Assembly: GCA_018396775.1 (NCBI GenBank)
Contig: JAGTRF010000002.1
Coordinates: 14,069 to 78,068, forward strand
Direction of reading: 5' to 3'
DNA: 64,000 nt
DNA from: Candidatus Bathyarchaeota archaeon
Lineage (GTDB): Archaea > Thermoproteota > Bathyarchaeia > 40CM-2-53-6 > DTDX01
Within the stretch, counting starts at the first letter, position 1. Each line of letters opens with the position of its first letter. Of this stretch, positions 6,792 to 59,203 are shown in pieces. The notes below the pieces were generated by a model. That model saw only the letters and a list, made by a program, of their open reading frames with translations, did not search any database and was not told where the DNA came from. The position numbers and the translations under genes are program-made.

Positions 6792-6837
6792 TATTAACCG
6801 CCTCCTAATTTCTAAATAAAAAAGAAGTAAACTGGTT

Positions 6838-8271: not shown

Positions 8272-8709
8272 ATTTTAAAACGCTCCGGTTAAATATACCT
8301 ATTTAACACCGAAAAATCTGAAATTTTATTTTATAAAAGAAGGTATTTAAAGCTTTCCGTGCTTTAAAAGAGATTGAAAAATAAGAGTTATCGCCTTCCT
8401 AAACCTTTTTAAAGGTTTAGCGATTTAAAGTAATGAACACTTTTACAAGAGTTTTGAATTAAGCTTCAGTTTACCTACTCTACGGTAAAGCTTTAGAAAG
8501 GCTTATAGCTGCAGATAAAACGAAAAGTAAGCTTAACGGTAAATAGCTTTCGCCTTTAAATTGTAATATGTGGATGAAAAAGAAATTTTGCAAAATGCTT
8601 GAATTCTTCATTAAAAGCATAGATTTATTTATTGAGTTTACTAAAGCTTGCTATACTGCTATTAGGAAAGCTCATTTTACCACCAATTGCATTGTAACAA
8701 AAATTAATT

Positions 8710-9845: not shown

Positions 9846-10250
9846 TTGAGCAGGGAAAAAATATTTTTAAAGGAAATTATGGGCAACTTTTCTTTAATAA
9901 TAATTATTTCATACGCGGTTATATTAACTTTATTTATCCTTGTAGGAATATTAAATATTAAAGATATGAAAGTTAAAAAAAGAGATAGATGGGTTAAAAA
10001 AGATTCTATAGCGATGATTATAAGAGTATTGTTTTATGGTTTTTTAATAAGCTTTGCAATCATCGAGCTTGAAGCTTTAATTTTAATGTTTGGACGTTTT
10101 TCGCTTCAGTTTTTTGCTGGAAAAAGCTTACCTATTTATGTTTCTCGTTCTCTTTTAATTCTACCTATTCTCCCAGTTATTTTAATTGGGGTAGTTTATG
10201 CTATAGCTAAAAAGAGGGAATGGTATGAGCTTATTGATGAAGAAGAATAA
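9846..10250 (+). CDS. Small integral membrane protein (3 predicted TM helices). Translationally coupled to the AAA-Lon gene.
   Basis: Hydrophobic segments. The stop overlaps the start of 10225..12978 by 26 nt. Confidence 0.5.
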   Translation: MSREKIFLKEIMGNFSLIIIISYAVILTLFILVGILNIKDMKVKKRDRWVKKDSIAMIIRVLFYGFLISFAIIELEALILMFGRFSLQFFAGKSLPIYVSRSLLILPILPVILIGVVYAIAKKREWYELIDEEE

Positions 10251-27832: not shown

Positions 27833-28774
27833 ATGACCAGAATATTTTTCGCGACCGATGTTCACGGTTCAGAAAAATGCTGGAAAAAATTTGTTAACGC
27901 TGGAAAATTTTATAAAGCTAACATCTCAATTTTAGGCGGAGATTTAACTGGTAAAGCTGTAATTCCAATAGTGAGCGAAGGCAACAACATTTATAAAGTG
28001 AATTTTTTAGAGCAGGATTTTAATTTAAAATCTAGTGAAGAGCTTGCTGAAATGGAGTATAAAATAGTTAATTCAGGTTATTATCCATATATTGTTTCTC
28101 GTGAAGAGTTAAAAGAGTTAAGTGTTAATCCAGATAAAGTTAATAAAATTTTTGAGCAGTTAATGACTGAGCGGTTAGAGAATTGGTTAAGGTTTGCTGA
28201 TGAAAAATTAAAGGGTTCAGGGATTAAAGCGTATGTTTGCCCAGGAAACGATGATCCATTCATAATTAACGAGTTAATTAAGAAATCTGAAGTTATAGAA
28301 AATGCTGAGGGAAAAGTTGTTGAGGTAGATTCTTATCATGAAATGATAAGCTCTGGATGGACTAATGTAACTCCATGGAAAACTTTTAGGGAATGCAGTG
28401 AAGAAGAGCTTGAAAGAAAAATAGAAGAAATGACTCAAAAAGTTAATAATTTGAGAAACTGTATTTTTAATCTTCACGCTCCACCATATGGATCTGGGCT
28501 TGATGAAGCTCCCCAATTAGATGAAAGCCTTAAGCCTATTTATGGAGGGCAGGTTTTAATGCCTGTTGGAAGTAAAGCTGTTAAAGAAGCTATAGAAAAA
28601 TATCAACCGCTTCTCGGGCTTCACGGGCACATTCATGAAGGTAAGGGTTTTTCACGCATTGGAAGAACTTTATGCATTAACCCTGGCAGCTCTTATGAAG
28701 AAGGAACATTGTTAGGCGCTATAATTGATTTAGATAAAGGAAAAATAGTTAGACATATGCTTGCAACAGGTTGA
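27833..28774 (+). CDS. Calcineurin-like metallophosphoesterase. Paralog of 49148..50182.
   Basis: DVHGS, GGD, GNDD and GHIHE metal-ligand motifs. About 50% identical by eye to the second copy. Confidence 0.75.
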   Translation: MTRIFFATDVHGSEKCWKKFVNAGKFYKANISILGGDLTGKAVIPIVSEGNNIYKVNFLEQDFNLKSSEELAEMEYKIVNSGYYPYIVSREELKELSVNPDKVNKIFEQLMTERLENWLRFADEKLKGSGIKAYVCPGNDDPFIINELIKKSEVIENAEGKVVEVDSYHEMISSGWTNVTPWKTFRECSEEELERKIEEMTQKVNNLRNCIFNLHAPPYGSGLDEAPQLDESLKPIYGGQVLMPVGSKAVKEAIEKYQPLLGLHGHIHEGKGFSRIGRTLCINPGSSYEEGTLLGAIIDLDKGKIVRHMLATG

Positions 28775-30215
28775 AAGGAAGGAGAATTTTATGCTTAAAT
28801 TTTTATCTAATAATGAGGTTTTAGAAATTCATAACGCCTCCTTAAAAATGTTGAATAAGCTTGGCGTAATAATAAAACATGAAAAACTTCTTAAAATGCT
28901 TAAGGATGCTGGAGCTGACGTTGATGAAGAAAAGCAGTTAGCTAGACTTCCAATATACTTGATTGAAGAGTTTGTTAGTAAAGCTCCAAGCGGGTATATT
29001 ATGGGCGGTCGAAAAAGAGAATATGATTTATATGTTGGAGATGGTAAAAGTTATGTTAGGAGTCAAGGTGGCTGCGATCGTATCTTAGATTTAGAAACAG
29101 GTGTTATTAGAGAAGCTAATACAAACGATGTTATTAACGCTACAATCATTCAAGATGCTTTAGAAAACATTCATTGGTGCGCAAGCTTTCTTCATCCAAG
29201 TGATGAACCTCCAATGACAAGAGATCTTTATCAATTAATGCTAATGATGGAAAATACTGTAAAGCATATAGTAGCTCAACCATATACAACTGAATCTTTT
29301 AAGTATCAAGTTAAAATGGCTAAAGCTATCATTGGAGATGAGGAAGAATTCATGAAAAGACCTCTTATAAGCGTTTTTGTTGGGCCAACAAGCCCGCTGG
29401 AAATAGATAAACATAACTGCGAGCTTATAGAAATAGCTGCTAAAAATAGAATTCCAATAATGCCTGTTAGCGCTCCTATAGCTGGCGCTACTGGTCCAGT
29501 AACTTTAGCTGGGTTAGCAGCTTTAGCTCACGCTGAAATAATGATGATTGTTGTTTTAACTCAATTAATTAATCCAGGTGCTCCAATAGAGTATACACCT
29601 AGACCTAACACTATGGATATGCGAACTGCTCAATCACTTTGGGGAGCCATAGAATATGCGTTAACTTCAGCTATTGGGGTTCAATTAGCTAGGCTTATTA
29701 AGCTTCCAGTATGCGTTCAATGCTTAAGCACAGACTCTAAGCTTCCAGATGCTCAAGCTTGCATAGAGAAAACTATGCAAATAACTTTAGCAGCTTTAAT
29801 GAAGCCTGATACGATGACTGGTGCTGGAGGAATAGATTCTGTTAAAACTGCAAGCTTAGAGCAATTAGTAATCGATAATGAAATAATAGGTATAGCTAAA
29901 AGAATTGCTAAAGGGGTTGAAGTTAACGATGAAACAATTGCTTATCATGTTATCGAAAGAGTTAAGCATGGCGGCCATTTTCTAGCTGATAAACATACCA
30001 GCAAATATTATTTTGAGGAGCATTATATACCTAAGCTTTTTGATAGAAATGCTAGAGGAGCATGGGAAGCCGCTGGCGGAAAAGACTTAACAACTAAAGC
30101 AAAAGAAACTGCAAAGAAAATTCTTAAAGAATATGAGCAGAGACCATTAGATGAAGATGTTAAAAAAGACTTAAGAAAAATAATGGATGAAGCTAGAAAA
30201 AACTTGGTTAAATAA
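28761..30215 (+). CDS. MttB-superfamily corrinoid-dependent methyltransferase, non-pyrrolysine type (quaternary-amine methyltransferase-like).
   Basis: PLISVFVGPTSPLE, LEQLVIDNEII and AWEAAGGKDL match trimethylamine methyltransferase blocks. Uninterrupted ORF with Ser/Thr in the region where MttB carries pyrrolysine. Confidence 0.8.
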   Translation: MQQVERKENFMLKFLSNNEVLEIHNASLKMLNKLGVIIKHEKLLKMLKDAGADVDEEKQLARLPIYLIEEFVSKAPSGYIMGGRKREYDLYVGDGKSYVRSQGGCDRILDLETGVIREANTNDVINATIIQDALENIHWCASFLHPSDEPPMTRDLYQLMLMMENTVKHIVAQPYTTESFKYQVKMAKAIIGDEEEFMKRPLISVFVGPTSPLEIDKHNCELIEIAAKNRIPIMPVSAPIAGATGPVTLAGLAALAHAEIMMIVVLTQLINPGAPIEYTPRPNTMDMRTAQSLWGAIEYALTSAIGVQLARLIKLPVCVQCLSTDSKLPDAQACIEKTMQITLAALMKPDTMTGAGGIDSVKTASLEQLVIDNEIIGIAKRIAKGVEVNDETIAYHVIERVKHGGHFLADKHTSKYYFEEHYIPKLFDRNARGAWEAAGGKDLTTKAKETAKKILKEYEQRPLDEDVKKDLRKIMDEARKNLVK

Positions 30216-31823: not shown

Positions 31824-33407
31824 ATGAATCAAAAGCTTTTAAATTGCAAATTACTCCTTGAAAAGCTTAAAGATAAAGAGTTAAGCGTTAAAGAAGTTAA
31901 TGAATTAAAACTGAAGATAGCGAAGCTCCTTAATCTTGAAAGAATTTTAAGCAACTCTGAAATTTTATCTATACTGAATGCTGAAGAAAGAAAAGCTTTA
32001 CTAAGATTACTTCAATTAAAAAAGGTTAGAAGCATTTCAGGCGTAAATATAGTAGCGGTTATGGCAGCTCCTTACAAATGTCCTCATGGAAAATGCGTTT
32101 ATTGTCCTTCTGAACCAGGGGTTCCAGAAAGCTATACTGGTCATGAACCATCTTCTATGAGAGGTCTTCAATATAATTTTAATCCTTATCTTCAAGTTTT
32201 AAATAGAATAAAACAATTAACTGATATTGGGCATTTAGTAAGCAAGGTTGAGCTTATAATTCAAGGCGGCACCTTTCCAGCTATGCCTGTTTCTTATCAA
32301 AAAGATTTTGTTAAAAGTTGTTTAGAAGCTATTATTGGAGAAAAAACTGAATCTTTAGATGAAGCTAAAAAGAAAGCTGAAGAAAGCAAAATTAGAAATG
32401 TTGGATTAACAATTGAAACTAGACCAGACTGGTGTAAACAAAAGCATATAGATTTAATGCTTGAATTAGGCGCTACTAGAGTTGAAATAGGAGTTCAAAC
32501 TTTATATGATGATATTTATAAATTAGTTGAAAGAGGGCATACAGTTCAAGATGTTATAAATGCTTTTAGAATGGCTAAAGATTCAGGTTTAAAAATTGTA
32601 GCGCATATGATGCCTGGTTTACCTGAATGCAATTTTGAAAGAGATTTAAAAGCTTTTCAAATTTTATTTAAAGATTCAAATTTTAAGCCTGATATGCTTA
32701 AAATTTATCCATGCTTAGTTTTAAAAAACACGAAGCTTTACGAATGGTGGAGAGAAGGAAAATATAGGCCTTATTCTACAGAGGAAGCGGTAGAGTTAAT
32801 TGTTAAAGTGAAGGCTAATATCCCTAAATGGGTTAGAATAATGAGAATTCAAAGAGATATTCCAGCTAAATTAATTGTCGCAGGAGTTAGAAAAAGTAAT
32901 TTAAGAGAGTTAGCTCAAGAAGAATTAAGACGGAAAGGTTTAAAATGCAATTGCATAAGATGTAGAGAAATAGGCCATAAAATGTTAAGGGAAAATGTTA
33001 AACCTAAATTTGAAAGCCTTCAACTTAATATTGAAGAGTACAAGGCTTCTGAAGGAGTTGAATTGTTTATTTCAATTGATGAACCAAGCTTGGACGCGTT
33101 AATTGGTTATTTAAGGCTTAGAATTCCATCAGAAAAAGCTGAAAGAATTGAGTTAACTGATGGAAAAACTTCTATAGTTAGAGAGCTTAAAGTTTGCGGT
33201 CCAGTAGTGCCTTTAGGAGAGCATTTTAAAGATGCTTGGCAGCATAAAGGTTTAGGTGCAAAACTGATTTTTGAAGCTGAAAAAATTAGCTTAGAAAAAT
33301 TTGATTGCAAAAAAATTCTTGTTTTAAGCGGTTTAGGCGTAAAACATTATTATAAACGTTTAGGTTACTATCCTGAAGGCCCTTATATGGCTAAAAAGCT
33401 TATTTAA
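31824..33407 (+). CDS. elp3: Elongator Elp3 homolog (radical SAM plus GNAT, tRNA wobble-uridine modification).
   Basis: CPHGKCVYCP rSAM motif. C-terminal GNAT (KGLGAKLI). 527 aa. Confidence 0.85.
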   Translation: MNQKLLNCKLLLEKLKDKELSVKEVNELKLKIAKLLNLERILSNSEILSILNAEERKALLRLLQLKKVRSISGVNIVAVMAAPYKCPHGKCVYCPSEPGVPESYTGHEPSSMRGLQYNFNPYLQVLNRIKQLTDIGHLVSKVELIIQGGTFPAMPVSYQKDFVKSCLEAIIGEKTESLDEAKKKAEESKIRNVGLTIETRPDWCKQKHIDLMLELGATRVEIGVQTLYDDIYKLVERGHTVQDVINAFRMAKDSGLKIVAHMMPGLPECNFERDLKAFQILFKDSNFKPDMLKIYPCLVLKNTKLYEWWREGKYRPYSTEEAVELIVKVKANIPKWVRIMRIQRDIPAKLIVAGVRKSNLRELAQEELRRKGLKCNCIRCREIGHKMLRENVKPKFESLQLNIEEYKASEGVELFISIDEPSLDALIGYLRLRIPSEKAERIELTDGKTSIVRELKVCGPVVPLGEHFKDAWQHKGLGAKLIFEAEKISLEKFDCKKILVLSGLGVKHYYKRLGYYPEGPYMAKKLI

Positions 33408-33423
33408 AAAGGGGTTAAATGTT

Positions 33424-34749
33424 TTGCCTGAATTAACAGGTTATAAGGGGTTAGCTTTAGAGAAGCTAAAGGAAGCTTCAGCTTCTTTAGGCGATGAAAT
33501 AAAAATTATTAAGGGCGAAAAAATTTATAAAGGAATTTTAATTCCAAGACCTGAATACCAAAATAGCGATTATATAGTTTTAAAGCTGAAAAGCGGCTAT
33601 AACATAGGTGTAAAGGTTGATTCAAGCGTTAAAATAGAGGTTTTAGGGTTTAAAGTTGAACCTAAATTCGTTAAGCCCCCTTCTCCAGAAACAAAAGAAG
33701 GTTTACCTCAAGTTTCCATAATTAGCACTGGTGGAACAATAGCTAGCAGAGTTGATTATAGAACTGGAGCTGTTGAACCTGCTTTAAATGCTGAAGACAT
33801 ATATAGCATAGTTCCAGAGCTTTCTAAAATAGCTAAAATAAACACTGAAATTCTTTATAATGAGTTTAGCGAAAACTTTACGCCAATTCATTGGGAAAAT
33901 ATTGCTAAAGCTGCAGCTAAAAATATTGAAGAAGGAGTTGATGGAATAGTTATATGCCATGGAACAGATACCATGGCATATACAGCTGCGGCTTTAAGCT
34001 TTGCTTTACAAAATCTTCCAGTTCCAGTAGTTTTAGTAGGTTCTCAAAGATCTTCTGATAGACCAAGCTCCGATGCTGCTGCAAACCTTATAGGCGCGGT
34101 TTCTATCTCGGCTAAAGCGCCTTTTGCTGAAGTTGCGATAGTTATGCATAAGGAAACATCTGATGATAAATTAATTGTTATTAGGGGGGTTAAAGCTAGA
34201 AAATGTCATACAAGCGCTAGAAATGCTTTTAAATCTATAAACGCTCAACCGATTGCAGAATATGATTTATTAAATGAAGAAATTAAATTTTTAAATGAAG
34301 ATTTTAAACCTAGAGTGAAAAGTGAAAAACTCGTTTTAAAACCAAAGTTTAACATGAAAGCTGCTTTAATAAAGTTTTACCCTGGAATGAACCATGAAAT
34401 TATAGACTTCTTTGTAGATAAAGGTTATCTTGGTTTAATTCTTGAAGGAACAGGGTTAGGACATGTAAGTCGATACTGCTATAACTCTATAAAAAGAGCT
34501 GTTGAAGCAGGATTATTTATTGGAATGACTTCTCAATGCCTTTGGGGAAGAATCAACATGCATGTTTATTATACTGGAAGAGATTTATTAAATTTAGGTG
34601 TAACCTCGCTTGAAGATATGCTTCCTGAAACAGCTCTAGTTAAATTAATGTGGGTTCTTGCTCAAACTTCTGAGCTGAATGAAGTTAAAACCTTAATGTT
34701 GAAAAATATTTCTGGAGAATTTTCTGGCAAGAGATGGATTGAGGTGTAA
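33424..34749 (+). CDS. gatD: Glu-tRNA(Gln) amidotransferase subunit D.
   Basis: Asparaginase-like ISTGGTIAS and HGTDTMAYTAAAL motifs. Confidence 0.85.
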   Translation: MPELTGYKGLALEKLKEASASLGDEIKIIKGEKIYKGILIPRPEYQNSDYIVLKLKSGYNIGVKVDSSVKIEVLGFKVEPKFVKPPSPETKEGLPQVSIISTGGTIASRVDYRTGAVEPALNAEDIYSIVPELSKIAKINTEILYNEFSENFTPIHWENIAKAAAKNIEEGVDGIVICHGTDTMAYTAAALSFALQNLPVPVVLVGSQRSSDRPSSDAAANLIGAVSISAKAPFAEVAIVMHKETSDDKLIVIRGVKARKCHTSARNAFKSINAQPIAEYDLLNEEIKFLNEDFKPRVKSEKLVLKPKFNMKAALIKFYPGMNHEIIDFFVDKGYLGLILEGTGLGHVSRYCYNSIKRAVEAGLFIGMTSQCLWGRINMHVYYTGRDLLNLGVTSLEDMLPETALVKLMWVLAQTSELNEVKTLMLKNISGEFSGKRWIEV

Positions 34750-34751
34750 TT

Positions 34752-36647
34752 ATGGCTTTAAATTATGAAGAAGCTGGATTAAAAGTTGGTATTGAAATTC
34801 ATTGTCAACTTGATACTGAAAGAAAGCTTTTTTGCAATTGCATAACAAAGCTTTCTACCGAACCTCCAAGCCTTAAATTTATCAGGCGTTTAAGGCCTAC
34901 TCAAAGCGAGCTTGGCCAAATAGATCCTGCTGCCTTATTCGAGTTTAAAAAAGGAAAAATGATTGTTTATGAAGCTGACCCTGAATCATGCTGTTTAGTT
35001 GAAATGGATGAAGAGCCTCCTCATGAATTAAATAAAGAAGCTTTAGAAGCAGCTTTAACTATCGCTCTTCTTTTAAATGCTGAACCTATAGAAGAAATTC
35101 ATGTGATGAGGAAAGTTGTAATAGACGGCTCTAATACAACAGGTTTTCAAAGAACAGCGGCCGTTGCTTTAAATGGTTTTATTCAAGTTGAAAATAAAAA
35201 GATTCAAATTGAACATGTAAGCTTAGAGGAAGATGCTGCTAGAAAAACCGGTGAATCTGGGTTAACAGTATCTTATAGAATAGATAGATTGGGAATCCCT
35301 CTTGTTGAAGTTGCTACAGCTCCAGTTATAACGAATCCAATTGAAGCTCAAAATGTAGCTTTAGCTATTGGAAGAATTTTAAAAGCTACAAAAAGAGTTA
35401 AAAGAGGAATTGGAACAATAAGGCAGGATCTTAACGTTTCAATTAAAGAAGGTGCTTTAATAGAAATTAAAGGAGTTCAAAAACTGGAGTTAATAGGGAA
35501 AGTTGTGGAATATGAGGTGCAACGTCAGTTTTCATTAATAGAAATAAAAAATGAATTAAGAAAAAGAGGGTTAACGCTTGATTTAATTCAAAATGAAATT
35601 TTTGATGTAACATCAATTCTAAAGGATACGAAAAGCAGAGTAATTAAAGAAGCTTTCAGTAAAGGTGGAGTAGCTTTAGCTGTTAAGCTTCCTAAATTTG
35701 CTGGATTATTAAAGAAGGAATTAATTCCTAACATAAGGCTTGGAACAGAAATGGCTTATCGAGCTATATTCGCTGGTAAAGTTAAAGGTTTATTTCATAC
35801 AGATGAATTACCTGGATATGGAATTTCAAAAGAAGAAGTTGAAAAAATAATTGAAACTCTTAAATTAAATAATGAAGATGCAGCTGTGATTATAGCTGAT
35901 TTAAAAGAGAATGCTGAAGATGCTTTAAAAGCGGTTATTGAAAGAGCTAAAGAAGCTTTTTTAGGCGTTCCAGAGGAAACAAGAGCAGCAAACCCGGATG
36001 GAACAACTCATTACATGCGTCCTAGACCTGGAGCTGCAAGAATGTATCCTGAAACAGACATCCCTTTAATTCAAATAACTAAAGATATGCTTACTAAAAT
36101 TGAAAAGAATCTTCCAGAACTGCCTGAAGAAATTGTTAATCGAGTGGTTAAAATTTATGGGATAAACCTTAAATTAGCTCAGCAGTTATTAGATTCAGAT
36201 AAGCTTTATTTATTTGAAGAGCTTACTTCTAAAGTTAAGATTTCTCCCCCCTTTATTGCTACAGTGTTGACTGAAACTTTAAAAAGCCTTGAAAGAGAAG
36301 GTTTTGAAATTGAAAAAATAACGGATGAACAAATAAAAGAAACTTTCAAGCTTATTGATGAAGGTGCTACAGCTAAAGAATCTATAGAAGAAATTTTCAA
36401 ATGGCTTGCTAAAAACGAGAATGCCAACCCTAAAGATGCTTTAATTAATTTAGGATTAAAAATGCTTAGCGAAAAAGAAATTGAAAAAATCATTTCAGAA
36501 ATTATTAATGAAAATTTAAGCCTTATCAAAGCTAGCGGTGAAGCTGCCTTTAAAAAATTAATGGGTTTAGCTATGAGCAGGCTAAGAGGAAAAGCAGATT
36601 CAAAAAAAGTTATGGAGCTTATTAAAAAAGAGTTGAAAGCTGTTTAA
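34752..36647 (+). CDS. gatE: Glu-tRNA(Gln) amidotransferase subunit E.
   Basis: GatB/E-like core. 631 aa. Directly follows gatD. Confidence 0.85.
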   Translation: MALNYEEAGLKVGIEIHCQLDTERKLFCNCITKLSTEPPSLKFIRRLRPTQSELGQIDPAALFEFKKGKMIVYEADPESCCLVEMDEEPPHELNKEALEAALTIALLLNAEPIEEIHVMRKVVIDGSNTTGFQRTAAVALNGFIQVENKKIQIEHVSLEEDAARKTGESGLTVSYRIDRLGIPLVEVATAPVITNPIEAQNVALAIGRILKATKRVKRGIGTIRQDLNVSIKEGALIEIKGVQKLELIGKVVEYEVQRQFSLIEIKNELRKRGLTLDLIQNEIFDVTSILKDTKSRVIKEAFSKGGVALAVKLPKFAGLLKKELIPNIRLGTEMAYRAIFAGKVKGLFHTDELPGYGISKEEVEKIIETLKLNNEDAAVIIADLKENAEDALKAVIERAKEAFLGVPEETRAANPDGTTHYMRPRPGAARMYPETDIPLIQITKDMLTKIEKNLPELPEEIVNRVVKIYGINLKLAQQLLDSDKLYLFEELTSKVKISPPFIATVLTETLKSLEREGFEIEKITDEQIKETFKLIDEGATAKESIEEIFKWLAKNENANPKDALINLGLKMLSEKEIEKIISEIINENLSLIKASGEAAFKKLMGLAMSRLRGKADSKKVMELIKKELKAV

Positions 36648-36976: not shown

Positions 36977-37651
36977 TTATTTACATGCAGTTTTAGCTTT
37001 ATGTCTTTCCTCTAATTCTTTAAAAATTTTCTTTAAGCTTATTCCTTTGTTGGCTAATAAAATTAAAACATGAAAAATTAAATCTGAAGCTTCAAAAACA
37101 ACTTCTTTTTCATCGCTTTTTTTTGAAGCTAAAACAAGCTCAAAAGCTTCTTCACCAATTTTTTGTAAAATAGCATCTTCACCTTCACTTGAAAGCTTAG
37201 AAACATAAGATTTTTCATTAAAGTTTTCTATTCTCTCTACGATAACTTCATAAATTTTTTCTAGAAATCTTCCATTAACAACCCCCTTCCCCTCTAAAGA
37301 GAAAGGTGAATTGTGAAAGCAGGATTCTTCCCCAGTATGACAGCAAACACCAATTTGATGAACTTTAAATAAAATAGCATCGTTATCACAGTCTAAAATA
37401 ACGTTTTCCACTATAGAATAATGTCCAGATTCCTCGCCTTTAAGCCATACTCTCCTTTTTGTTCTACTCCAATAATGCATTTTTCCAGTTTTTAACGTAA
37501 GCTTTAAAGCTTCTTCATTCATGAAAGCTTGCATTAAAACTTTTTCACTATCCTTATCTTGAACAACTACTGGAACTAAACCATTCATTTTTTTAAAATC
37601 AACTTTTGAAACAAGCTCTTCTATTTCTCCTTCCGATAACTTTAAAACCAT
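36977..37651 (-). CDS. hisI: Bifunctional phosphoribosyl-AMP cyclohydrolase / phosphoribosyl-ATP pyrophosphatase.
   Basis: N-terminal HisI (CHTGEESCF). C-terminal HisE-like helical domain. Confidence 0.8.
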   Translation of the reverse strand: MVLKLSEGEIEELVSKVDFKKMNGLVPVVVQDKDSEKVLMQAFMNEEALKLTLKTGKMHYWSRTKRRVWLKGEESGHYSIVENVILDCDNDAILFKVHQIGVCCHTGEESCFHNSPFSLEGKGVVNGRFLEKIYEVIVERIENFNEKSYVSKLSSEGEDAILQKIGEEAFELVLASKKSDEKEVVFEASDLIFHVLILLANKGISLKKIFKELEERHKAKTACK

Positions 37652-37787: not shown

Positions 37788-38228
37788 TTACTTAGAAAAA
37801 TTAAACTCAATATTTTTCAAAATTGCATCCACCAATTCGTTAGCTCTCTTCGCTTTTTTTAAAGCTTTATAAGCTTTTTCTTCGTTATAAAGTTCCCAAG
37901 GTGTAATACCTTCTGTAGGTTTACCATAAGTAGCAATTCCATGTTCAGGTGCTAATTCATGAGCTAAGTACGCTAACTCTTCAATAAAGTTTTTTTGTTC
38001 TAGTGATAATTCATGCATAACTTCTATCAATTCACTTGATGGATCATGAGTCCAACTTGGTATTCTTTTTAAAGCAATTATAGCTTTAGCGGCACTTTCA
38101 ATAGATAATTGTGAGGCTTCAACACTTTCTTTATAGTCACCTGTATTTAAAAATTTTTCCGCTTTTTTCAAGTATTCTAAAGCTAATTTGCATCTATAAT
38201 TCACTTCTGAGGTTGGATCGATTTTCAA
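37788..38228 (-). CDS. HEPN domain protein (toxin of the HEPN/MNT pair).
   Basis: 146 aa, helical. Directly follows an MNT nucleotidyltransferase. The Rx4-6H motif was not clearly identified. Confidence 0.55.
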   Translation of the reverse strand: MKIDPTSEVNYRCKLALEYLKKAEKFLNTGDYKESVEASQLSIESAAKAIIALKRIPSWTHDPSSELIEVMHELSLEQKNFIEELAYLAHELAPEHGIATYGKPTEGITPWELYNEEKAYKALKKAKRANELVDAILKNIEFNFSK

Positions 38229-38231
38229 AAA

Positions 38232-38681
38232 TTACACCATTATTGTAGTAAAATATTTATCTTTTGGCTTCCATCCGTATTTACCATCTTTTGTTCTATA
38301 TCTTTCAAGTTTATCTTTAACAGCATCCTTTATGCGTTTAAATAATTTCTCAAGTTTTCCAGAAGGATCATAAAGTATTATAGAATCCCATGCGATATTT
38401 AAAAGCAATGGAGTTATCGTTAATTCCTCTTTAAAAAGATTCTCTTCATCAACATCTATTATGGTTATATCTCGTTTAAGAATATTGTATAAATGATGAT
38501 ATATTGTAAATCTTCTACCTTCTTCTTTAAACTCTTTAACGACTATGAAAAAATCAGCATCACTATATTCGCAAGCTTCATTTCTAGCCCAGCTTCCAAA
38601 TAATGCTATACCCGTAATTTTATCTCCTAAAGCATTAACAAGCGCTTTAGAAGCTTTATACGCTAATTCTATTGCTTGCAT
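38232..38681 (-). CDS. Minimal nucleotidyltransferase (MNT, Pol-beta superfamily).
   Basis: GSWARNEACEYSDADFFIV matches the GS...DxD NTase signature. Confidence 0.75.
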   Translation of the reverse strand: MQAIELAYKASKALVNALGDKITGIALFGSWARNEACEYSDADFFIVVKEFKEEGRRFTIYHHLYNILKRDITIIDVDEENLFKEELTITPLLLNIAWDSIILYDPSGKLEKLFKRIKDAVKDKLERYRTKDGKYGWKPKDKYFTTIMV

Positions 38682-50818: not shown

Positions 50819-52204
50819 ATGAGGAATGAAAATTTGCCTCCTATAAGTTTTATTGAAGTTTTAAATCGAAGCTTGACAGGTCCAGTTTCATCAGAAAAAG
50901 AGTTTGATTATAAAGTTGGCATGAAATTAAGAGAGCTTGTAAAAAAATATGATATTAAATATAATCCAGAAAACCCAATCCCATCTGACAATAGTTTAGC
51001 TGATGATGTATTTAAAGCAGCTGTAGAATTTTATACTGATGTAGGCACTTATTGCATGGATACCGAGCGAAGAATAACATTTACAGAGGATGAAATTAAA
51101 GAAGGAATAAAAAATGTGCCACATGCAACCCTTTTTGGGGAAGGAAATGAAGCAAAATTTTTCTCTGCTAGAACGCTTGAAAGCTCTGAGCATCCATGGT
51201 GTCATGTAGGTGCTGGAATAGCCGTATCCAGTGAAGAACTATTAGTAAAACTTGTTGAAGCTTTTGCAAGCATTCCTGAAACTGATTCCGTAAGCGTTCC
51301 TACATTAACTGAGGTTGATGGCGTTCCTATAAGAACACCGCCATTAGAAGTTTATGGATCAATAAGAATGATTGCTTTAGCTCATGAAGCTATGAAAAGA
51401 GCCGGTCGCCCAGGTTTACCGATTTTAAATTTAGTTTCTACAGCAGCTTCTCAAATAGCTGGAATAGCTGCAACAGCTCCTCAATTTGGGATAAAACCAA
51501 CAGATGGATGGCTTGTAGATGCTTTCCCAGATTTAAAAATGTATAACGATGTTTTAACTAAAGCAGCTTACCTGTTAAACTGGGGCGCAAATATAGGTGC
51601 ATGTTATACACCATTAATAGGTGGATACTCTGGAGGACCTGAAGGAACAGCTATAATGAGTGTTGCTTACTCGATAAACGGGATAATGGTGTTAAAATCA
51701 AGATATCAACTTTACTATGTTTCAAATATAGTAAACGGTTCATCAAGCAGTAGAGACGCTCTTTGGGCTTTATCAGTTAGCGCGCAAGCAATAAGCAGAA
51801 ACATTAAAGTACCTATAATTCATTTATCTTATCAAGCTGCTGGAGCTGCTACAGAAATGCTATTATATGAAATTACAGCAGCTATATTAGCGTCGGTGGC
51901 TTCCGGCATCTCAGTAGAAAGCAACCATCCATCTAAAGCTGTGTTAACCGATCATATAATCCCTATGGAATCTGAATTTTATTGTAAAGTTGCGCATGCT
52001 GTTACTGGCATGAAAAGAAGTGAAGTAAATGAACTTGCAAAAATCCTATTACTTAAATATGAGAAGGATTTAAATAATCCGCCTAAAGGAAAAAAATATC
52101 AAGAATGTTATGATGTTAAAACAGGTAAACCAAAGGAAGAGTATTTAAAATTCTATAAAGTTATGGAGAAAAAAATTATTGATTTAGGAATACAAATTGA
52201 ATAA
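50819..52204 (+). CDS. MtmB-family (monomethylamine methyltransferase-like) corrinoid-dependent methyltransferase, non-pyrrolysine.
   Basis: C-terminal PKGKKYQECYDVKTGKPKEEYLKFY resembles the MtmB C-terminus. AGRPGLPILNLVSTAASQIAG aligns where MtmB encodes Pyl. The ORF is uninterrupted. This rests on my recall of MtmB sequence. Confidence 0.65.
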   Translation: MRNENLPPISFIEVLNRSLTGPVSSEKEFDYKVGMKLRELVKKYDIKYNPENPIPSDNSLADDVFKAAVEFYTDVGTYCMDTERRITFTEDEIKEGIKNVPHATLFGEGNEAKFFSARTLESSEHPWCHVGAGIAVSSEELLVKLVEAFASIPETDSVSVPTLTEVDGVPIRTPPLEVYGSIRMIALAHEAMKRAGRPGLPILNLVSTAASQIAGIAATAPQFGIKPTDGWLVDAFPDLKMYNDVLTKAAYLLNWGANIGACYTPLIGGYSGGPEGTAIMSVAYSINGIMVLKSRYQLYYVSNIVNGSSSSRDALWALSVSAQAISRNIKVPIIHLSYQAAGAATEMLLYEITAAILASVASGISVESNHPSKAVLTDHIIPMESEFYCKVAHAVTGMKRSEVNELAKILLLKYEKDLNNPPKGKKYQECYDVKTGKPKEEYLKFYKVMEKKIIDLGIQIE

Positions 52205-52239
52205 AGTTTATAAAAATAACAAATGGAGGGAAAATTAGG

Positions 52240-52884
52240 TTGTCTTCTAAAGAAGAGATTTTAAATAAGGTTGTTTTGGATTTGTTTAGTTATGATGTTG
52301 ATGGTATTAGGGTTGATGTTGAAAAGGCTTTAGAAAAAGGTTTTTCGCCTTTAGAGGTTATTAACGCCTTATCTAATGGTATGCGTGAGATTGGTGATAA
52401 GTTTGCTAGGCTTGAGCTTTTCTTAACTGATTTAATGATGGCTGGTGACACGATGAAGGCTGCTTTAGAAATATTACTGCCTAAAATTCCTAAAGATAAA
52501 GCTGTAAGTAAAGGCAAAATTGTTATTGGAACTGTTAAAGGGGATATTCATGAAATAGGCAAGAATATTGTTTCAGCCATGTTGACAGCTTCAGGTTTTG
52601 AAGTTTACGATTTAGGGAAGGATGTTCCAGCTTCAAGGTTTCTTGAGGAAGCTGAGAAATTTAAAGCTAATATTATAGGCGCTTCAGCATTAATGACAAC
52701 AACAATACCCGCCTTAAAAGATTTAATAGAATATGTTAAGGCTAAAGGCTTAAGAAATAAATATAAAATAATAGTTGGTGGAGGACCAGTAACAAAAGAA
52801 TATGCGGAGGAAATAGGTGCAGACGCATATGCGGAAAACGCTGTAGAAGCCGTTAAAACAATAAAAAACCTAATAGAAAAATAG
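52240..52884 (+). CDS. Corrinoid (cobalamin-binding) protein, MtmC/MttC-like.
   Basis: Helical cap plus Rossmann B12 domain with GDIHEIGKNIV (DxHxxG). TTG start after GGAGGG. Confidence 0.8.
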   Translation: MSSKEEILNKVVLDLFSYDVDGIRVDVEKALEKGFSPLEVINALSNGMREIGDKFARLELFLTDLMMAGDTMKAALEILLPKIPKDKAVSKGKIVIGTVKGDIHEIGKNIVSAMLTASGFEVYDLGKDVPASRFLEEAEKFKANIIGASALMTTTIPALKDLIEYVKAKGLRNKYKIIVGGGPVTKEYAEEIGADAYAENAVEAVKTIKNLIEK

Positions 52885-52897
52885 AGGAGACACATAT

Positions 52898-54268
52898 ATG
52901 AACTCTGTTAACTTCTTTGAAGTTTTAAAACGCGCTTCATCAGGTCCCATAGTTTCTGAAAAAGAATTTAATATACTGGTTTTTAAAAAGCTTAAAGAAG
53001 TTGTGAAAGAGTACGATATAAAATTTGATGGTGAAACCCCAGTTCCTTTTGATGATAGTTTAGCTGATGATGTATTTAAAGCTGCTTTAGATTTTTATGC
53101 TGATGTAGGCACTTATTGCATGGATACTGAGCGTATAATAAAATTTACAGAGGATGAAATTAAAGAAGGCTTAAAAAATGCTCCTCATAAAGCTTTTTTT
53201 GGAGAAGGAAAAGAAGCGAAAACTTTTATACCTAGAAAACCTGAAAGCAAAGAAACTCCATGGTGTCATGTAGGTGCTGGAATAGCTGTATCTAGTGAAG
53301 AAATTCATTCAAAGTTAGTTGAAGGATACGCTAGCATTCCTGAAGCAGATTCTATAAGCGTTCCAGCATTAGCTTTTATAGAAGGTGTTTCAATAAGGGA
53401 GCCTCCAATAGAATTTTATGGTGCTTTGAAAATGTTAGCTTCAGCTAAAGAAGCTTTAAGAAGAGCCGGTCGTCCAGGCTTACCGATTTTAAATCTTGTT
53501 TCTACAGCGGCCTCTCAAATAGCTGGAATAGCTGCTAGTGCAGCGCAATTTGGCTTAACATCTTCTAACGGATGGTTAGTTCCCACTTATCCAGAATTAA
53601 AAATTGGAAATAATGAGTTATGTAAAATAGCTTATCTGCTTAGTTGGGGAGCAAATATTGGTGCTGAATACTCGCCGTTAATAGGTGGCTACTCTGGTGG
53701 ACCTGAAGGAACAGCAGTAGTGTTTGTTGCTAATTGCATTCAAGGAATACTAGTTTTAAAGTCTACTTATCAACTTGCTTGGATAACAAATGTTATTGAT
53801 AGATGCTCAACTACTAAAGATGCCATATGGGCTTTAGCTGTAAGCGGTCAAGCAATAAGCCGAAATATATCTTTTCCAGTTATTCAATTTCATTATCAAG
53901 CAGCCGGTCCAGCAACTAAAATGCTGCTTTATGAGGTTGCTGCAGGCATGATTGAGATAGTGGCTTCAGGTCAAGCTATAGAAACAGCGCATCCAGCTAG
54001 AGCTGTAGAAATAGATTATGTAACGCCGTTAGAAATGAAATTTTCTGTAGAAATAGCTCATGCAGCAGCAGGAATGAAAAGAACAATGGCAAACGAAATA
54101 GTTAAAGAACTACTAGAAAAATATGAAAATAACATTAAAAATGCTCCTAAGGGAAAAAAATATCAAGAATGCTTTGATTTAAAAACAGGTAAACCTACCG
54201 AAGAATACTTAAGAATATATAATGAAGTGAAAAAAGAGCTTAAAGATATAGGTATCCCATTTGAATAA
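52898..54268 (+). CDS. MtmB-family methyltransferase, second paralog, non-pyrrolysine.
   Basis: Collinear with 50819..52204 (GRPGLPILNLVSTAASQIAG and PKGKKYQECFDLKTGKPTEEYLRIY). About 55-60% identical by eye. Confidence 0.65.
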   Translation: MNSVNFFEVLKRASSGPIVSEKEFNILVFKKLKEVVKEYDIKFDGETPVPFDDSLADDVFKAALDFYADVGTYCMDTERIIKFTEDEIKEGLKNAPHKAFFGEGKEAKTFIPRKPESKETPWCHVGAGIAVSSEEIHSKLVEGYASIPEADSISVPALAFIEGVSIREPPIEFYGALKMLASAKEALRRAGRPGLPILNLVSTAASQIAGIAASAAQFGLTSSNGWLVPTYPELKIGNNELCKIAYLLSWGANIGAEYSPLIGGYSGGPEGTAVVFVANCIQGILVLKSTYQLAWITNVIDRCSTTKDAIWALAVSGQAISRNISFPVIQFHYQAAGPATKMLLYEVAAGMIEIVASGQAIETAHPARAVEIDYVTPLEMKFSVEIAHAAAGMKRTMANEIVKELLEKYENNIKNAPKGKKYQECFDLKTGKPTEEYLRIYNEVKKELKDIGIPFE

Positions 54269-54761: not shown

Positions 54762-55943
54762 ATGTTTTTAATTGGTGAAGCTCTCGTCGGCTCTGGACCT
54801 GAAGTAGCCCATATAGATTTAATTATAGGCGATAAAGAAGGCGTTGTAGGGCAAGCTTTCGCTACAGGTTTAGCTAGTTTATCTGCGGGGCATACTCCTT
54901 TAGTAGCTGTTATAAGGCCTAATTTACCGCCTAAGCCCTTCACCTTACTTGTTCCTAAAGTAACAATTAAAAATATGGAACAAGCTGCTAAAGTTTTTGG
55001 TTCAGCTCAAGCAGCTGTAGGTAAAGCTGTGGCAGATGCTGTTGAAGAAGGAATTATTCCAAAAGATAAAATTGATGAATGGGTTATTATATGCAGCGTT
55101 TTTATTCATCCAGAAGCTAAAGATTCAAGGCGAATATACCATTATAATTACAGTGCAACTAAACTAGCGCTTAAAAGAGCTTTAATGAATTATCCAAGCT
55201 TAGAGAAAATAATGTATGATAAGGATAGAGCAACTCATCCGATAATGGGCTTTAGAGTTCCAAGATTATGGATGCCGCCCTACCTTCAAGTAGCTTTAGA
55301 TATTCCAGATTTAGAGAAAACAAAAGCTATTGTAGCTGATCTTCCTAAAAGCGATAGAATAATTCTTGAAGCTGGAACCCCGCTTATAAAAAGATACGGC
55401 GCTAGAGTAATTCAAGAATTAAGAGAAATAGTTAAAGATGTTTTTATAATAGCTGATTTAAAAACGCTTGATGTAGGTCAAGTGGAAGTTGATTTAGCTT
55501 ATGAAGAAACAGCAGATGCAGTTGTAGCATCTGGATTAGCTAGCATAGAAACATTAAATAAATTCATTTATGAAGCTAAAAGGCTTGGAATATACGCTGC
55601 AATAGATATGATGGATGTAGTTAACCCATTAAAGCTTTTAGAGCAATTAACTGATTTACCAGATATAGTTATTATTCATAGAGGAATAGATGAGGAAAAA
55701 ATAAAGAAAACAAGATGGGAATTAATTAAAGAGCTTAAAGAAAAATATAAAGATAAAAAAATGCTTATAGCTATAGCCGGAGGAATAGAGCCTTCAACAG
55801 TTCCTTTAGCTTTAGAATCAGGCGCAGATATAATAGTTGTAGGAAGATATATAACGCAATCAAGAGATGTTAAAAAAGCAGCTAGAGAATTCTTAACTCA
55901 GCTAGGCTTAGACATGGATATATTTAGAGTTCACGTAGAATAG
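54762..55943 (+). CDS. fae/hps: Bifunctional formaldehyde-activating enzyme / 3-hexulose-6-phosphate synthase.
   Basis: N-terminal Fae (MFLIGEALVG...VAHIDLIIG). C-terminal OMPDC-fold HPS (LQVALD, ADLKTLD). Confidence 0.8.
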   Translation: MFLIGEALVGSGPEVAHIDLIIGDKEGVVGQAFATGLASLSAGHTPLVAVIRPNLPPKPFTLLVPKVTIKNMEQAAKVFGSAQAAVGKAVADAVEEGIIPKDKIDEWVIICSVFIHPEAKDSRRIYHYNYSATKLALKRALMNYPSLEKIMYDKDRATHPIMGFRVPRLWMPPYLQVALDIPDLEKTKAIVADLPKSDRIILEAGTPLIKRYGARVIQELREIVKDVFIIADLKTLDVGQVEVDLAYEETADAVVASGLASIETLNKFIYEAKRLGIYAAIDMMDVVNPLKLLEQLTDLPDIVIIHRGIDEEKIKKTRWELIKELKEKYKDKKMLIAIAGGIEPSTVPLALESGADIIVVGRYITQSRDVKKAAREFLTQLGLDMDIFRVHVE

Positions 55944-57311: not shown

Positions 57312-57698
57312 TTAAAGCTCATCACTTGCAACTGTTTTTACATATTTTTTACCTATTTTATAAAGCTTTGAATCATCTGTAACTAATGTTAAGTTGTTAT
57401 CTATCGCAGCTTGAATATATGATGCATCATAATAGGTTATACCTTCTTCTAAAGCCATTTTTAATATTTTTAAGGCATTTTCAGGTTTTAGCTTCTTTAA
57501 CCTATTGAAGACTTCAATTAAAGAATCTAATGCTATTCTTGCCTCATCAGCTTCTATAGCTTTATATAAATAAACCTGCTTCCAAATAGCATTTCCCAAC
57601 TCATAAAACGTTAAACTTAAAGTCCATCCTTCAAGCAGTTTATCCAATTTTTTTTCTCCACATAAGTTTATTATAGCTGAAGAGTCAAAAAGATTCAT
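57312..57698 (-). CDS. vapC: PIN-domain ribonuclease (VapC toxin).
   Basis: 128 aa with PIN acidic residues. Overlaps the upstream small antitoxin by 4 nt. Confidence 0.7.
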   Translation of the reverse strand: MNLFDSSAIINLCGEKKLDKLLEGWTLSLTFYELGNAIWKQVYLYKAIEADEARIALDSLIEVFNRLKKLKPENALKILKMALEEGITYYDASYIQAAIDNNLTLVTDDSKLYKIGKKYVKTVASDEL

Positions 57699-57922
57699 CT
57701 CTCTTCTCTACTCTCCCTTAAAGATTTAATCCAAGCCTCTTCGCTAACTTTTTTTATAATTTTGCTCGCTTCTTCAACCTTTTTATAAAGGCGTTGTTTC
57801 ATTCTTTCCTCCACTTCCTCTTCAAGCGCTCTTTTAATAACTTCAGAAGGTTTTATTCCTAGCTCAGAAAGCTTTTTTCTAAGCTCTTCATCGATTTTGG
57901 CTGAAACAGTTACATACCTCAA
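57695..57922 (-). CDS. vapB: Ribbon-helix-helix (CopG/VapB-like) antitoxin.
   Basis: YVTVSAKIDEELRKKLSEL has an N-terminal beta-strand followed by a helix. Confidence 0.6.
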   Translation of the reverse strand: MRYVTVSAKIDEELRKKLSELGIKPSEVIKRALEEEVEERMKQRLYKKVEEASKIIKKVSEEAWIKSLRESREER

Positions 57923-58196
57923 TTATACCACCAATATGTATTACATAATTTTACTATATAAATATTACTACTTTATAAGACTCCAATAAAATAAAGTTGA
58001 ATCTTATACACCTGAAAAACCCTAATTTACTACTCACCCTTAAAATTTAACAATCTAAAGGAGAGGCTTTTAAATATGCTGCTCTTACAAAAGAATAAGC
58101 TAAATGCAATATAACGATAGTTGTAAATTAAAAACGTGGAGTCATAAACTAATTTAAGGTATTTAAACCTAACACAATTTAATGAGCAATATAAGA

Positions 58197-58333
58197 TGGT
58201 AGCCCGGGGGAGATTCGAATTCAGGGCTTTAAGCTCTCCCGTCAGCAGGTTGCTTTTCCCTTTTTTAATAGGATCCAGAGCCTTACAGGGGCTTCTGAGC
58301 CCTTGCTATGCTTGACCGCTACACCACCGGGCT
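58197..58333 (-). tRNA. Atypical, likely intron-containing tRNA gene (isotype not resolved by eye).
   Basis: Minus strand. 5' AGCCCGG-TG-GTGT-AGCGGTCAA-GCAT (acceptor plus D-arm with GG). 3' ...TTCGAATCTCCC-CCGGGCT-A-CCA (T-loop, acceptor complement, encoded CCA). About 60 extra nt lie between them. The T-stem partner GGGAG sits 16 nt upstream of the T-loop. Confidence 0.5.
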
Positions 58334-58396
58334 ATAGGCTTCCCCCAGGCTAAGAAATAAGTTTATTTAAAGAGAAAATTAAACTTTTCTTAATTT

Positions 58397-59203
58397 TTAA
58401 ACTGTTTTTAAAACCCTTAAAATTTCTTTGCATAAGTGATTATTTGCAGCTGCTATAAAAGAAGCTTTTTCCTCAGGTGTAACCTTCATGTTCAATTCTT
58501 CCCCATTTAATGAAACAATAACTCCTCCAGCCTCTTTAACTATTAATTGGCTTGCTGCGATATCCACAGCTCTAATCTTATTTCTTGCATCTATAAAAGC
58601 GTCTGTAACGTTGTTTGCTATTTGACAAAGCTCTAACGCGTTAGCTCCAAAATGTCTTGTATGCCGAGCATAATTAAAAAGATTTGCAATCTTTTTTATA
58701 TCTTCACTATTTGTAAAGCATAAATCTAAACCTATTAGAGCTTTATTTAAACTTGTCACATTAGATGTATGGACTTCATTATTATTTAAATATGCTCCTT
58801 TATCTTTTTCAGCGTAATAAACATCTCCATTTACAAGATCCATAACTAAACCTGCATAAACACTTTTTAAAAATAAAGTTTTAGAAACAGCTAAGGAACA
58901 GCAATAAAAATTTATGCCTCTTAAAGCGTTTAATGTGCCATCTATAGGATCAAGAATTATAAATTCTTTAGGTTTTTCCCCCAGCTTTTTTACCCCAGCT
59001 TCCTCGCTTACTAAAATGCATGAAACATTAAGTTTATTTAAAGTTTCAATTACCGTTTTCTCCGCTATATAATCCACTTTTCTAGTTATATCCCCTCCAG
59101 CTCCTTGACCCAATTCTTCACCAGCTTCCTTTAAGCTTAACGTTAACTTCACGTTTCTCTTAACCTCTTCACAAGTTTCCCTTAAAATTTTAAACCAATC
59201 CAT
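58397..59203 (-). CDS. Inositol monophosphatase / fructose-1,6-bisphosphatase family protein.
   Basis: ILDPIDGT and EEAG...DLV metal-binding motifs. Confidence 0.75.
   Translation of the reverse strand: MDWFKILRETCEEVKRNVKLTLSLKEAGEELGQGAGGDITRKVDYIAEKTVIETLNKLNVSCILVSEEAGVKKLGEKPKEFIILDPIDGTLNALRGINFYCCSLAVSKTLFLKSVYAGLVMDLVNGDVYYAEKDKGAYLNNNEVHTSNVTSLNKALIGLDLCFTNSEDIKKIANLFNYARHTRHFGANALELCQIANNVTDAFIDARNKIRAVDIAASQLIVKEAGGVIVSLNGEELNMKVTPEEKASFIAAANNHLCKEILRVLKTV

Follow-up and report, generated by a model that had tools for sequence, protein, structure and literature searches.

Introduction

Introns of archaeal tRNA genes are marked by a motif termed bulge-helix-bulge (BHB), a 4-bp helix flanked by two 3-nt bulges (PMC4090602, PMC7714728). 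In the published register the splice sites fall within the 3-nt bulges, and the first two anticodon bases lie in the central helix of the canonical intron (PMC4090602). Positions 29/30 and 53/54 are already among the listed intron positions, and genes with three introns have been documented (PMC4090602); the tRNA-Pro(UGG) gene of Pyrobaculum islandicum, for example, is interrupted by introns at each of 25/26, 37/38 and 56/57 (Sugahara et al. 2007/2008, in the summary given by PMC4090602). Here we describe a 137-nt tRNA gene in a stretch of 64,000 nucleotides, called the window below, from Candidatus Bathyarchaeota archaeon (assembly GCA_018396775.1, contig JAGTRF010000002.1, positions 14,069 to 78,068 of the forward strand). 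The gene lies on the minus strand of the window at 58333..58197, and its sequence makes it very probable that this is a functional tRNA-Gln(CUG) gene of a Bathyarchaeia archaeon with three protein-spliced introns, at positions 29/30, 37/38 and 53/54.

The gene resembles the three-intron genes of the Thermoproteales in carrying one canonical and two non-canonical BHB introns, the latter placed one each 5' and 3' of the anticodon loop, in the shortness of its inserts (about 15-30 nt), in the broad-specificity endonuclease that it would require, and in being missed by simple gene finders. It differs from the tRNA-Pro gene of P. islandicum in its host (Bathyarchaeia, 32% G+C), in its identity (Gln-CUG) and in the positions 29/30 and 53/54. 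Upstream of it stands a conserved leader with complementarity to the gene's own 3' strand, a feature that the literature searched does not describe for the Thermoproteales genes. Three BHB introns likewise interrupt the nuclear tRNA-Ile(UAU) gene of Cyanidioschyzon merolae, where the outer ones are spliced before the canonical one, as was established by experiment (PMC3728597). The two genes are alike in where they are interrupted, the C. merolae gene in its D-region, at 37/38 and within its T-arm, and in that their BHBs depend on one another, and the C. merolae order agrees with the one suggested for the window gene by overlapping helices. However, the C. merolae gene is eukaryotic and nuclear, its introns sit in the D-stem and the T-loop, and its splicing is experimental, whereas that of the window gene is predicted.

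The tRNAscan-SE 2.0 survey, in those parts of its text that are drawn on here, gives a maximum of three introns per archaeal tRNA gene, at which the window gene stands, and models Thaumarchaeota and Crenarchaeota introns which, like those of our gene, belong to TACK archaea, are bounded by BHBs and call for iterative removal, as one BHB forms only after another intron is gone; the same parts of the text make no mention of Bathyarchaeota (PMC8450103). The split tRNA genes of Nanoarchaeum equitans and Caldivirga offer a further likeness, namely a G+C-rich stretch, about 12 nt long and external to the mature sequence, which pairs and holds parts of the precursor together (PMC3218864, PMC4090602). 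In split tRNAs, however, a BHB is formed by trailer-leader pairing of two transcripts, whereas in the window a collinear gene has a leader in cis that would pair with its mature 3' acceptor/T strand, and no BHB arises from that pairing. The window gene belongs to a known kind, the multi-intron BHB tRNA gene, and is ordinary for its lineage.

Results

Sequence and detection of the locus

The 5' end of the 137-mer reads AGCCCGG-TG-GTGT-AGCGGTCAA-GCAT, which is an acceptor 5' strand followed by a D-arm, and the 3' end reads TTCGAAT-CTCCC-CCGGGCT-A-CCA, which comprises the T-loop, the T-stem 3' strand, the acceptor 3' strand, the discriminator and an encoded CCA. Between these canonical ends there are 61 nt of extra sequence, and the sole GGGAG of the 137-mer, which pairs with CTCCC, is placed exactly 16 nt 5' of the T-loop. 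A first-pass annotation of this DNA had described canonical 5' and 3' parts, about 60 extra nucleotides and a GGGAG 16 nt upstream of the T-loop, and each of these elements is present in the sequence.

The locus is the top G+C island of the window (61% against a mean of 32%). Neither tRNA end has a second copy in the 64 kb with up to 3 mismatches, where no chance match is expected. Standard predictors do not detect the gene: ARAGORN in default and intron modes with relaxed thresholds returned nothing on the raw locus or on the whole 64-kb window, and Rfam, used with the gathering score and with a permissive E-value, returned no tRNA in the window and only a spurious RgsA match (E 0.14). Inspection of G+C islands together with an acceptor/T-arm scan revealed no further hidden tRNAs in the window, the remaining islands being coding. 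As for the source, the adjoining protein of the IMPase/FBPase family matches, at 100% identity, a protein from a 'Candidatus Bathyarchaeota archaeon' metagenome-assembled genome (MAG), and its homologues are overwhelmingly from Bathyarchaeia.

Exon-intron structure

Four exons and three introns make up the gene, all on the minus strand. Exon 1 (58304..58333) covers tRNA positions 1-29, that is the acceptor 5' strand, the D-arm and the first 3 nt of the anticodon stem. It is followed by intron 1 (58283..58303), a non-canonical intron of 21 nt at 29/30 with the sequence AGGGCTCAGAAGCCCCTGTAA, which forms a strict helix-bulge-helix-bulge-helix (hBHBh') structure with a fully paired central helix (AUAG/CUGU, 4/4), bulges CAA and AAG, an inner helix h' of GGGCU/AGCCC and an outer helix h of 3 bp. 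Exon 2 (58275..58282), GGCTCTGG, covers positions 30-37 and holds the anticodon CTG at 34-36. Intron 2 (58251..58274), 24 nt with the sequence ATCCTATTAAAAAAGGGAAAAGCA, is the canonical 37/38 intron; its BHB is in the canonical register, and the central helix CUCU/AAAG pairs at 3/4 positions with a C34.A mismatch (the relaxed form), the h' helix UCCU/GGGA has 4 bp, the h helix is the anticodon stem, and the anticodon bases 34-35 lie inside the central helix. Exon 3 (58236..58250) covers positions 38-53, with the anticodon stem 3' strand, a 4-nt variable loop and the T-stem 5' strand GGGAG. Intron 3 (58220..58235), non-canonical at 53/54 and 16 nt long (AGCTTAAAGCCCTGAA), is again a strict hBHBh' structure, with a central helix CGGG/CCUG of 4/4 pairs, bulges AGA and AAU, and h' and h helices of 3 bp each. 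Exon 4 (58197..58219) covers positions 54-76 and contains the T-loop TTCGAAT, the T-stem 3' strand, the acceptor 3' strand, A73 and the encoded CCA. Numbered along the pre-tRNA, the inserts occupy 31-51 (21 nt), 60-83 (24 nt) and 99-114 (16 nt). The register of all three agrees with the published description of the BHB (PMC4090602).

In-silico removal of the three inserts yields a 76-nt tRNA-Gln(CUG) which is called by ARAGORN and in which every stem is paired (acceptor 7/7, D 4/4, anticodon 5/5, T 5/5), with U33, a purine at 37 and the T-loop TTCGAAT, whereas removal of subsets of the inserts leads to a wrong ARAGORN call or to none. The pair A1-U72 and the discriminator A73 are consistent with archaeal tRNA-Gln. 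The first-pass annotation had proposed at least one non-canonical intron, possibly two, and had named the lack of a valid cloverleaf after intron removal as the outcome that would mark a remnant. Two non-canonical introns, at 29/30 and 53/54, are indeed present, the third, canonical intron at 37/38 having gone unseen so that the total is three, and the flawless 76-nt cloverleaf favours a real tRNA.

We also performed a scan for the pattern helix/3-nt bulge/4-bp helix/3-nt bulge/helix which is blind to the cloverleaf. The strict scan of the 137-mer finds exactly two motifs, at 31-51 and 99-114, which are both non-canonical introns, and with one mismatch allowed in the central helix the 37/38 intron at 60-83 also appears. 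However, shuffled 137-mers contain about 1.1 strict and about 10 relaxed BHB-like motifs per shuffle. Since such motifs are common in shuffles, BHBs alone are weak evidence, and the case therefore rests on the coincidence of the BHBs with the junctions that restore the cloverleaf and on comparative data.

Conservation and covariation among related genes

The inositol-monophosphatase/FBPase-family (IMPase) gene upstream of the tRNA (58397..59203, minus strand) served as a synteny anchor for finding orthologous tRNA genes. In contigs whose IMPase orthologues have 88, 83, 74 and 73% identity, the order Zip transporter, IMPase, tRNA is kept. The complete syntenic copies (L002/L003, L005 and L006 in our set of related contigs) carry inserts at the same three positions with different sequences, intron 2 measuring 21-27 nt and intron 3 measuring 16-18 nt in them. 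Around more distant IMPase orthologues (L007, L008, L010; 55-57% identity) the tRNA synteny is lost, and these were uninformative.

A wider set was obtained by scanning one genome per GTDB species with the pattern AGCCCGGTGGTGTAG-N(92-122)-CCCGGGCTA. This gave 56 loci, nearly all from Bathyarchaeia, and every one (56/56) parses as a tRNA-Gln gene with 1-3 inserts, located in the D-arm, at 29/30, at 37/38 or in the T-arm (about 50/51-59/60); a metagenome scan added 58 loci. A strict BHB solver left many related genes unsolved, their 53/54 intron being without an inner h' helix of at least 2 bp, and it was replaced by an exon-anchored parse together with a consensus-alignment parse. The exon-anchored parse of all loci results in 47 distinct tRNA-Gln(CUG) genes with near-invariant exons, exon 1 being nearly invariant among them and exon 2 invariant in 47/47.

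The predicted register was then compared with registers displaced by 1-3 nt. For the 29/30 intron the mean number of pairs is 3.23 against 0.88 in the central helix and 4.53 against 0.59 in the h' helix; for the central helices at 37/38 and 53/54 it is 3.11 against 1.45 and 4.00 against 1.10, respectively. The 53/54 central helix is perfect (4/4) in all 40 of 40 orthologues, through the variants CCUG, CUCG and CCCG. When the genes are aligned on their junctions, 88.6% of the cells are paired, compared with 30-49% when the partners are slid, and 8 pairs are changed on both sides. In the inner h' helix at 29/30 all four pairs (4/4) are compensatory across clades (GGGC/GCCC, UGGC/GCCA, GGAA/UUCC and others). 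Of 500 shuffles, none comes up to the real alignment in its number of paired cells, in cells changed on both sides, in further pair types or in the covariation score; for the count of pairs changed on both sides, 16/500 do.

Genes with four introns in a sister clade

In the metagenomes, 22 distinct tRNA-Gln(CUG) genes of a sister clade have introns at 29/30, 37/38 and 53/54 and also a fourth, of 20-21 nt, at 10/11. They include L067, L068, L074, L082, L107 and L113, together with 16 others, from freshwater-sediment and other Joint Genome Institute (JGI) metagenomes. These genes are about 157-159 nt long without CCA, and their mature sequence is identical to that of the three-intron relatives. 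The 10/11 BHB has perfect central and inner helices (CGGU/GCCG, GGAG/CUCC), and six of the genes solve to perfect cloverleaves. In a further clade (L112, L114) there is a 10/11 intron of 22-25 nt with an unrelated inner helix (GCGGGC/GCCCGC) and no 53/54 intron. One gene family shows a graded series of 2, 3 and 4 introns, with gain or loss at fixed positions, and the sister clade, at four introns, appears to exceed the published archaeal maximum of three.

Proposed expression, folding and order of splicing

The motif GAAAA[AG]TTTA[AT]TT[TC] is conserved in 6/6 orthologues of the window clade, 22-23 nt upstream of the leader element described below. In the window it reads GAAAAGTTTAATTT (58376..58389, minus strand), and by the known archaeal promoter consensus it is a putative promoter consisting of a B recognition element (BRE) and a TATA box. 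Transcription would start from this promoter, about 50 nt upstream of the tRNA gene, and in the precursor each exon-intron pair would form a BHB. The archaeal splicing endonuclease would cut 2 nt into each bulge, and RtcB ligase would join the exons. Bathyarchaeia belong to the TACK group. The (alpha-beta)2 endonuclease of this group accepts relaxed and non-canonical BHBs (PMC7714728), and cleavage by a broad-specificity (alpha-beta)2 EndA with ligation by RtcB is what we infer from the lineage.

As proposed, the 29/30 and 53/54 BHBs would draw on the 3' strand of the D-stem and the 5' strand of the T-stem, and therefore the precursor would have to adopt a conformer other than the cloverleaf. 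The outer helix of the 29/30 BHB shares 3 nt with the central helix of the 37/38 BHB, and after removal of introns 1 and 3 in silico the minimum free energy (MFE) fold consists of the acceptor stem, the T-arm and an extended anticodon stem which presents the 37/38 BHB. From this overlap and this fold it follows that the non-canonical introns are probably removed first and the canonical 37/38 intron last. The 76-nt product would be a standard cloverleaf with A1-U72, A73 and the encoded CCA, and would serve as a substrate of the GatDE pathway. The genes gatD-gatE, for the Glu-tRNA(Gln) amidotransferase, are in the window itself (33424..36647, plus strand; Pfam GatD_N and Asparaginase, and GatB_N, GAD and GatB_Yqey), so that Gln-tRNA(Gln) would be made by transamidation, for which a tRNA-Gln is needed. 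Directly upstream of them is a gene for an Elp3-type radical-SAM enzyme of tRNA modification; about 22 kb separate the small tRNA-related cluster so formed (31824-36647) from the gene for tRNA-Gln.

A conserved 5' leader complementary to the 3' strand

Upstream of the tRNA, on the same strand, there is a leader element, TAGCCTGGGGGA (58341..58352), which is complementary to tRNA positions 62-73 (TCCCCCGGGCTA) over 12 bp including one G-U. The element (58352..58341, TAGCCUGGGGGA) is G-rich, and its partner is made of the T-stem 3' and acceptor 3' strands. It is conserved upstream of the tRNA-Gln genes of L001, L002/3, L005, L006 and L015. In the six orthologues of the window clade the leader starts 22-23 nt past the BRE/TATA motif and 26.5-27.5 nt from the TATA centre, which is the predicted transcription start, and the distance from the leader to tRNA position +1 varies from 6 to 22 nt. 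In every four-intron gene the leader contains a copy of the acceptor strand, AGCCCGG(G), placed 2-3 nt upstream of +1. Such a copy is present in 24/24 genes with the 10/11 intron and in 0/13 close relatives that lack this intron, a co-occurrence which reflects only about five lineages. Complementarity of the leader type of at least 8 bp is found in 3.7% of random windows, and never in ordinary tRNAs on the same contigs.

In the folding model the helix of the leader with the 3' strand reaches -59.1 kcal/mol compared with -52.2 kcal/mol for the acceptor stem, a gain of about 7 kcal/mol. With the leader, the 53/54 BHB helix becomes more probable (0.126, up from 0.005). Three genes were modelled for the 10/11 BHB helix: in L068 and L074 its probability climbs to about 1.0 from 0.03-0.45, whereas in L114 it stays at about 0.015 with the leader.

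These results lead us to a tentative proposal, which we hold to be possible though not the likelier outcome, that the leader is the start of the transcript and acts in cis as a 'surrogate strand', freeing tRNA strands for the non-canonical BHBs. By pairing with positions 62-73 the leader would close the precursor with a 12-bp helix and block the mature T-stem and acceptor stem; the freed acceptor 5' and T-stem 5' strands could then form the BHB at 53/54 and, in the four-intron sister clade, that at 10/11; after splicing the leader would be displaced and then removed by RNase P. Several points limit this proposal. The L036-type genes keep the 53/54 intron but have no leader, the window clade has the leader but no 10/11 intron, and the transcription start is a prediction. 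Alternatively, the leader could be a DNA element close to the promoter, or a copy of the 5' end that is in decay.

Alternative explanations for the locus

One alternative is that the locus is a pseudogene or remnant, a decayed copy of tRNA-Gln that has received insertions beside a mobile toxin-antitoxin (TA) module. The failure of standard predictors on the raw sequence would fit this, as would the position of the gene at a synteny breakpoint next to the VapBC pair described below. However, the inserts are bounded exactly by BHBs and a flawless cloverleaf results once they are removed, strong purifying selection acts on the exons in the 47 distinct genes while their introns diverge with compensatory changes, the promoter and the encoded CCA are conserved, and the GatDE of the same window needs a tRNA-Gln, all of which makes decay very improbable. 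The first-pass annotation had also considered a split or permuted arrangement. In such a gene, split or circularly permuted, the parts of the tRNA would be united in trans or once the RNA has been circularised. The G+C-rich leader, complementary to another part of the RNA, superficially recalls the leader/trailer of split tRNAs, but it pairs with the mature 3' strand and not with a trailer, and forms no BHB. The four exons occur once each and are collinear from 5' to 3' within 137 nt, and the window holds no second copy of either tRNA end. As exons at one locus splice in silico to a perfect cloverleaf, we reject this arrangement, to which next to no probability can be given.

It could further be supposed that the introns are fewer or shifted, for example as one long insert, with junctions at 28/29 and 38/39, or with an extra leader intron arising from the upstream AGCC repeat. 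The 29/30 and 37/38 junctions can slide by one base without change of the product, owing to a repeated A, and the leader sequence AGCCTGG can stand in for the acceptor 5' strand opposite CCGGGCT. But only with the set 29/30, 37/38 and 53/54 does every junction fall 2 nt inside a 3-nt bulge that adjoins a 4-bp helix, which holds for 47/47 genes; this register is also the one described previously (PMC4090602), and single long deletions score poorly as cloverleaves in the solver. There is accordingly scant chance that a different set of junctions is the right one. A fourth intron in the window's own leader, with its AGCC repeats, was checked by hand and rejected, there being no BHB conserved among L005, L006 and the window.

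Certain observations weigh against a functional three-intron gene. The comparative set is dominated by a few clades, so that there are fewer independent events than the sequence counts suggest. The window open reading frames (ORFs) of at least 110 aa include neither a splicing endonuclease nor RtcB. The MFE of the full precursor is not significantly below that of shuffles (z = -1.43) and was not used as evidence, and the corresponding fold uses a slightly different register around intron 1; the C34.A mismatch of the 37/38 central helix is a further blemish. The case is built from DNA sequence, and the search for further tRNA genes of this genome covered the 64-kb window. Despite the clade bias, the pattern of the related sequences still reads as the classic signature of introns, with exons conserved and introns free except at the BHB.

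The VapBC neighbour and the synteny breakpoint

The VapBC pair begins 274 nt downstream of the tRNA 3' end. It consists of a VapC toxin gene for a PIN-domain protein of 128 aa (57312..57698, minus strand), which matches Pfam PF01850 with E 2.1e-8 and 35.2 bits against a cut-off of 23.6, and of a VapB-like antitoxin gene for 75 aa (57695..57922, minus strand), which matches NCBIfam NF050799 (TA_anti_VapB_Sulfo) with E 8e-8 and 32.7 bits, below the cut-off of 60, and has a weak CcdA-type Pfam match. The antitoxin ORF lies upstream of the PIN gene and overlaps it by 4 nt. With a PIN match above the Pfam cut-off and an overlapping 75-aa gene whose VapB match is sub-threshold, the pair at 57312-57922 is credible, by sequence, as a VapBC-type module, and in this respect the initial description of a VapBC pair beside the tRNA holds. 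A second TA-like pair, a HEPN-domain protein and a minimal nucleotidyltransferase (37788-38681, minus strand), sits on the same strand between a hisIE-like gene (36977-37651) and His_biosynth genes (hisF/hisA-like) of a histidine operon that extends to 45552.

Nucleotide and protein homology with L002, L003, L005, L006 and L015 stops within 20 nt of the tRNA 3' end (about 58176-58197 in the window), and the genes beyond the tRNA differ by genome: VapBC in the window, a Cas3-like helicase with an HD protein in L006 and a Pyr_excise-domain protein in L005. The tRNA 3' end is a genuine synteny breakpoint, since homology ends there and each genome is different beyond it. This is the part of the proposed 'integration hotspot' that finds support, and the variable cargo would suit a tRNA serving as the attachment site of an integrated element that delivered VapBC. 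However, no att-type repeat of the 5' or 3' part of the tRNA occurs in the 64 kb with up to 3 mismatches, nor is any relevant direct repeat present in the 50-64 kb part of the window. Pfam detects no integrase or recombinase among the window ORFs of at least 110 aa, and the genes just past VapBC are housekeeping or metabolic (MFS, Fae-Hps, MtmB). The hotspot is only weakly supported as a whole; integration at the tRNA is possible, not demonstrated, and we regard an attachment site as an unlikely origin of the VapBC pair.

Other genes of the window

The metabolic genes at 28761-30215, 50819-54268 and 54762-55943 encode an MttB-family methyltransferase, a tandem pair of MtmB-family paralogues with a corrinoid (B12-binding) protein between them, and a fused Fae-Hps. 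The MtmB paralogues are 81% identical over 300 nt. Neither MtmB ORF has an in-frame stop and each covers the whole length of the Pfam model, which makes them apparent non-pyrrolysine homologues. At 5244-9843 (minus strand) three consecutive radical-SAM enzymes, one with a SPASM domain, stand beside a glycosyltransferase and could form a peptide- or cofactor-maturation cluster. The region 10225-12978 encodes a 917-aa protein with an N-terminal STAND-like NTPase signal followed by AAA+ and Lon protease C-terminal domains, an unusual architecture for the Lon family.

Discussion

In the literature searched, where absence is not proof, we found no report of multi-intron tRNAs in Bathyarchaeota, of archaeal tRNAs with four introns, or of pairing between a tRNA leader and the 3' strand. 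Should the surrogate strand proposed above be true, it would be a previously undescribed folding device in cis that lets tRNA genes tolerate introns inside the acceptor/T minihelix, and it might also explain how the lineage reached four introns per gene; it would then add a new element to models of the folding of pre-tRNA and of the order of its processing.

The gene, in itself an ordinary part of the translation apparatus, bears as well on the annotation of genomes from this group. ARAGORN in intron mode calls no tRNA in the window and only 46 in 780 kb of related, mostly Bathyarchaeia contigs (L001-L124), and several of the 46 are interrupted tRNA-Gln genes mis-typed as Tyr, Ser, Val, Lys, Glu or Arg. 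Simple tools probably under-call the tRNAs of Bathyarchaeia MAGs badly, and the tRNA complements, together with the completeness and the codon usage inferred for such genomes, will be underestimated as long as annotation does without iterative tools that recognise BHBs. The series of two, three and four introns within one gene family is useful for studying the origin and the tolerance of archaeal tRNA introns, and the heavy disruption of tRNA genes, best documented in the Thermoproteales, now extends to the Bathyarchaeia.

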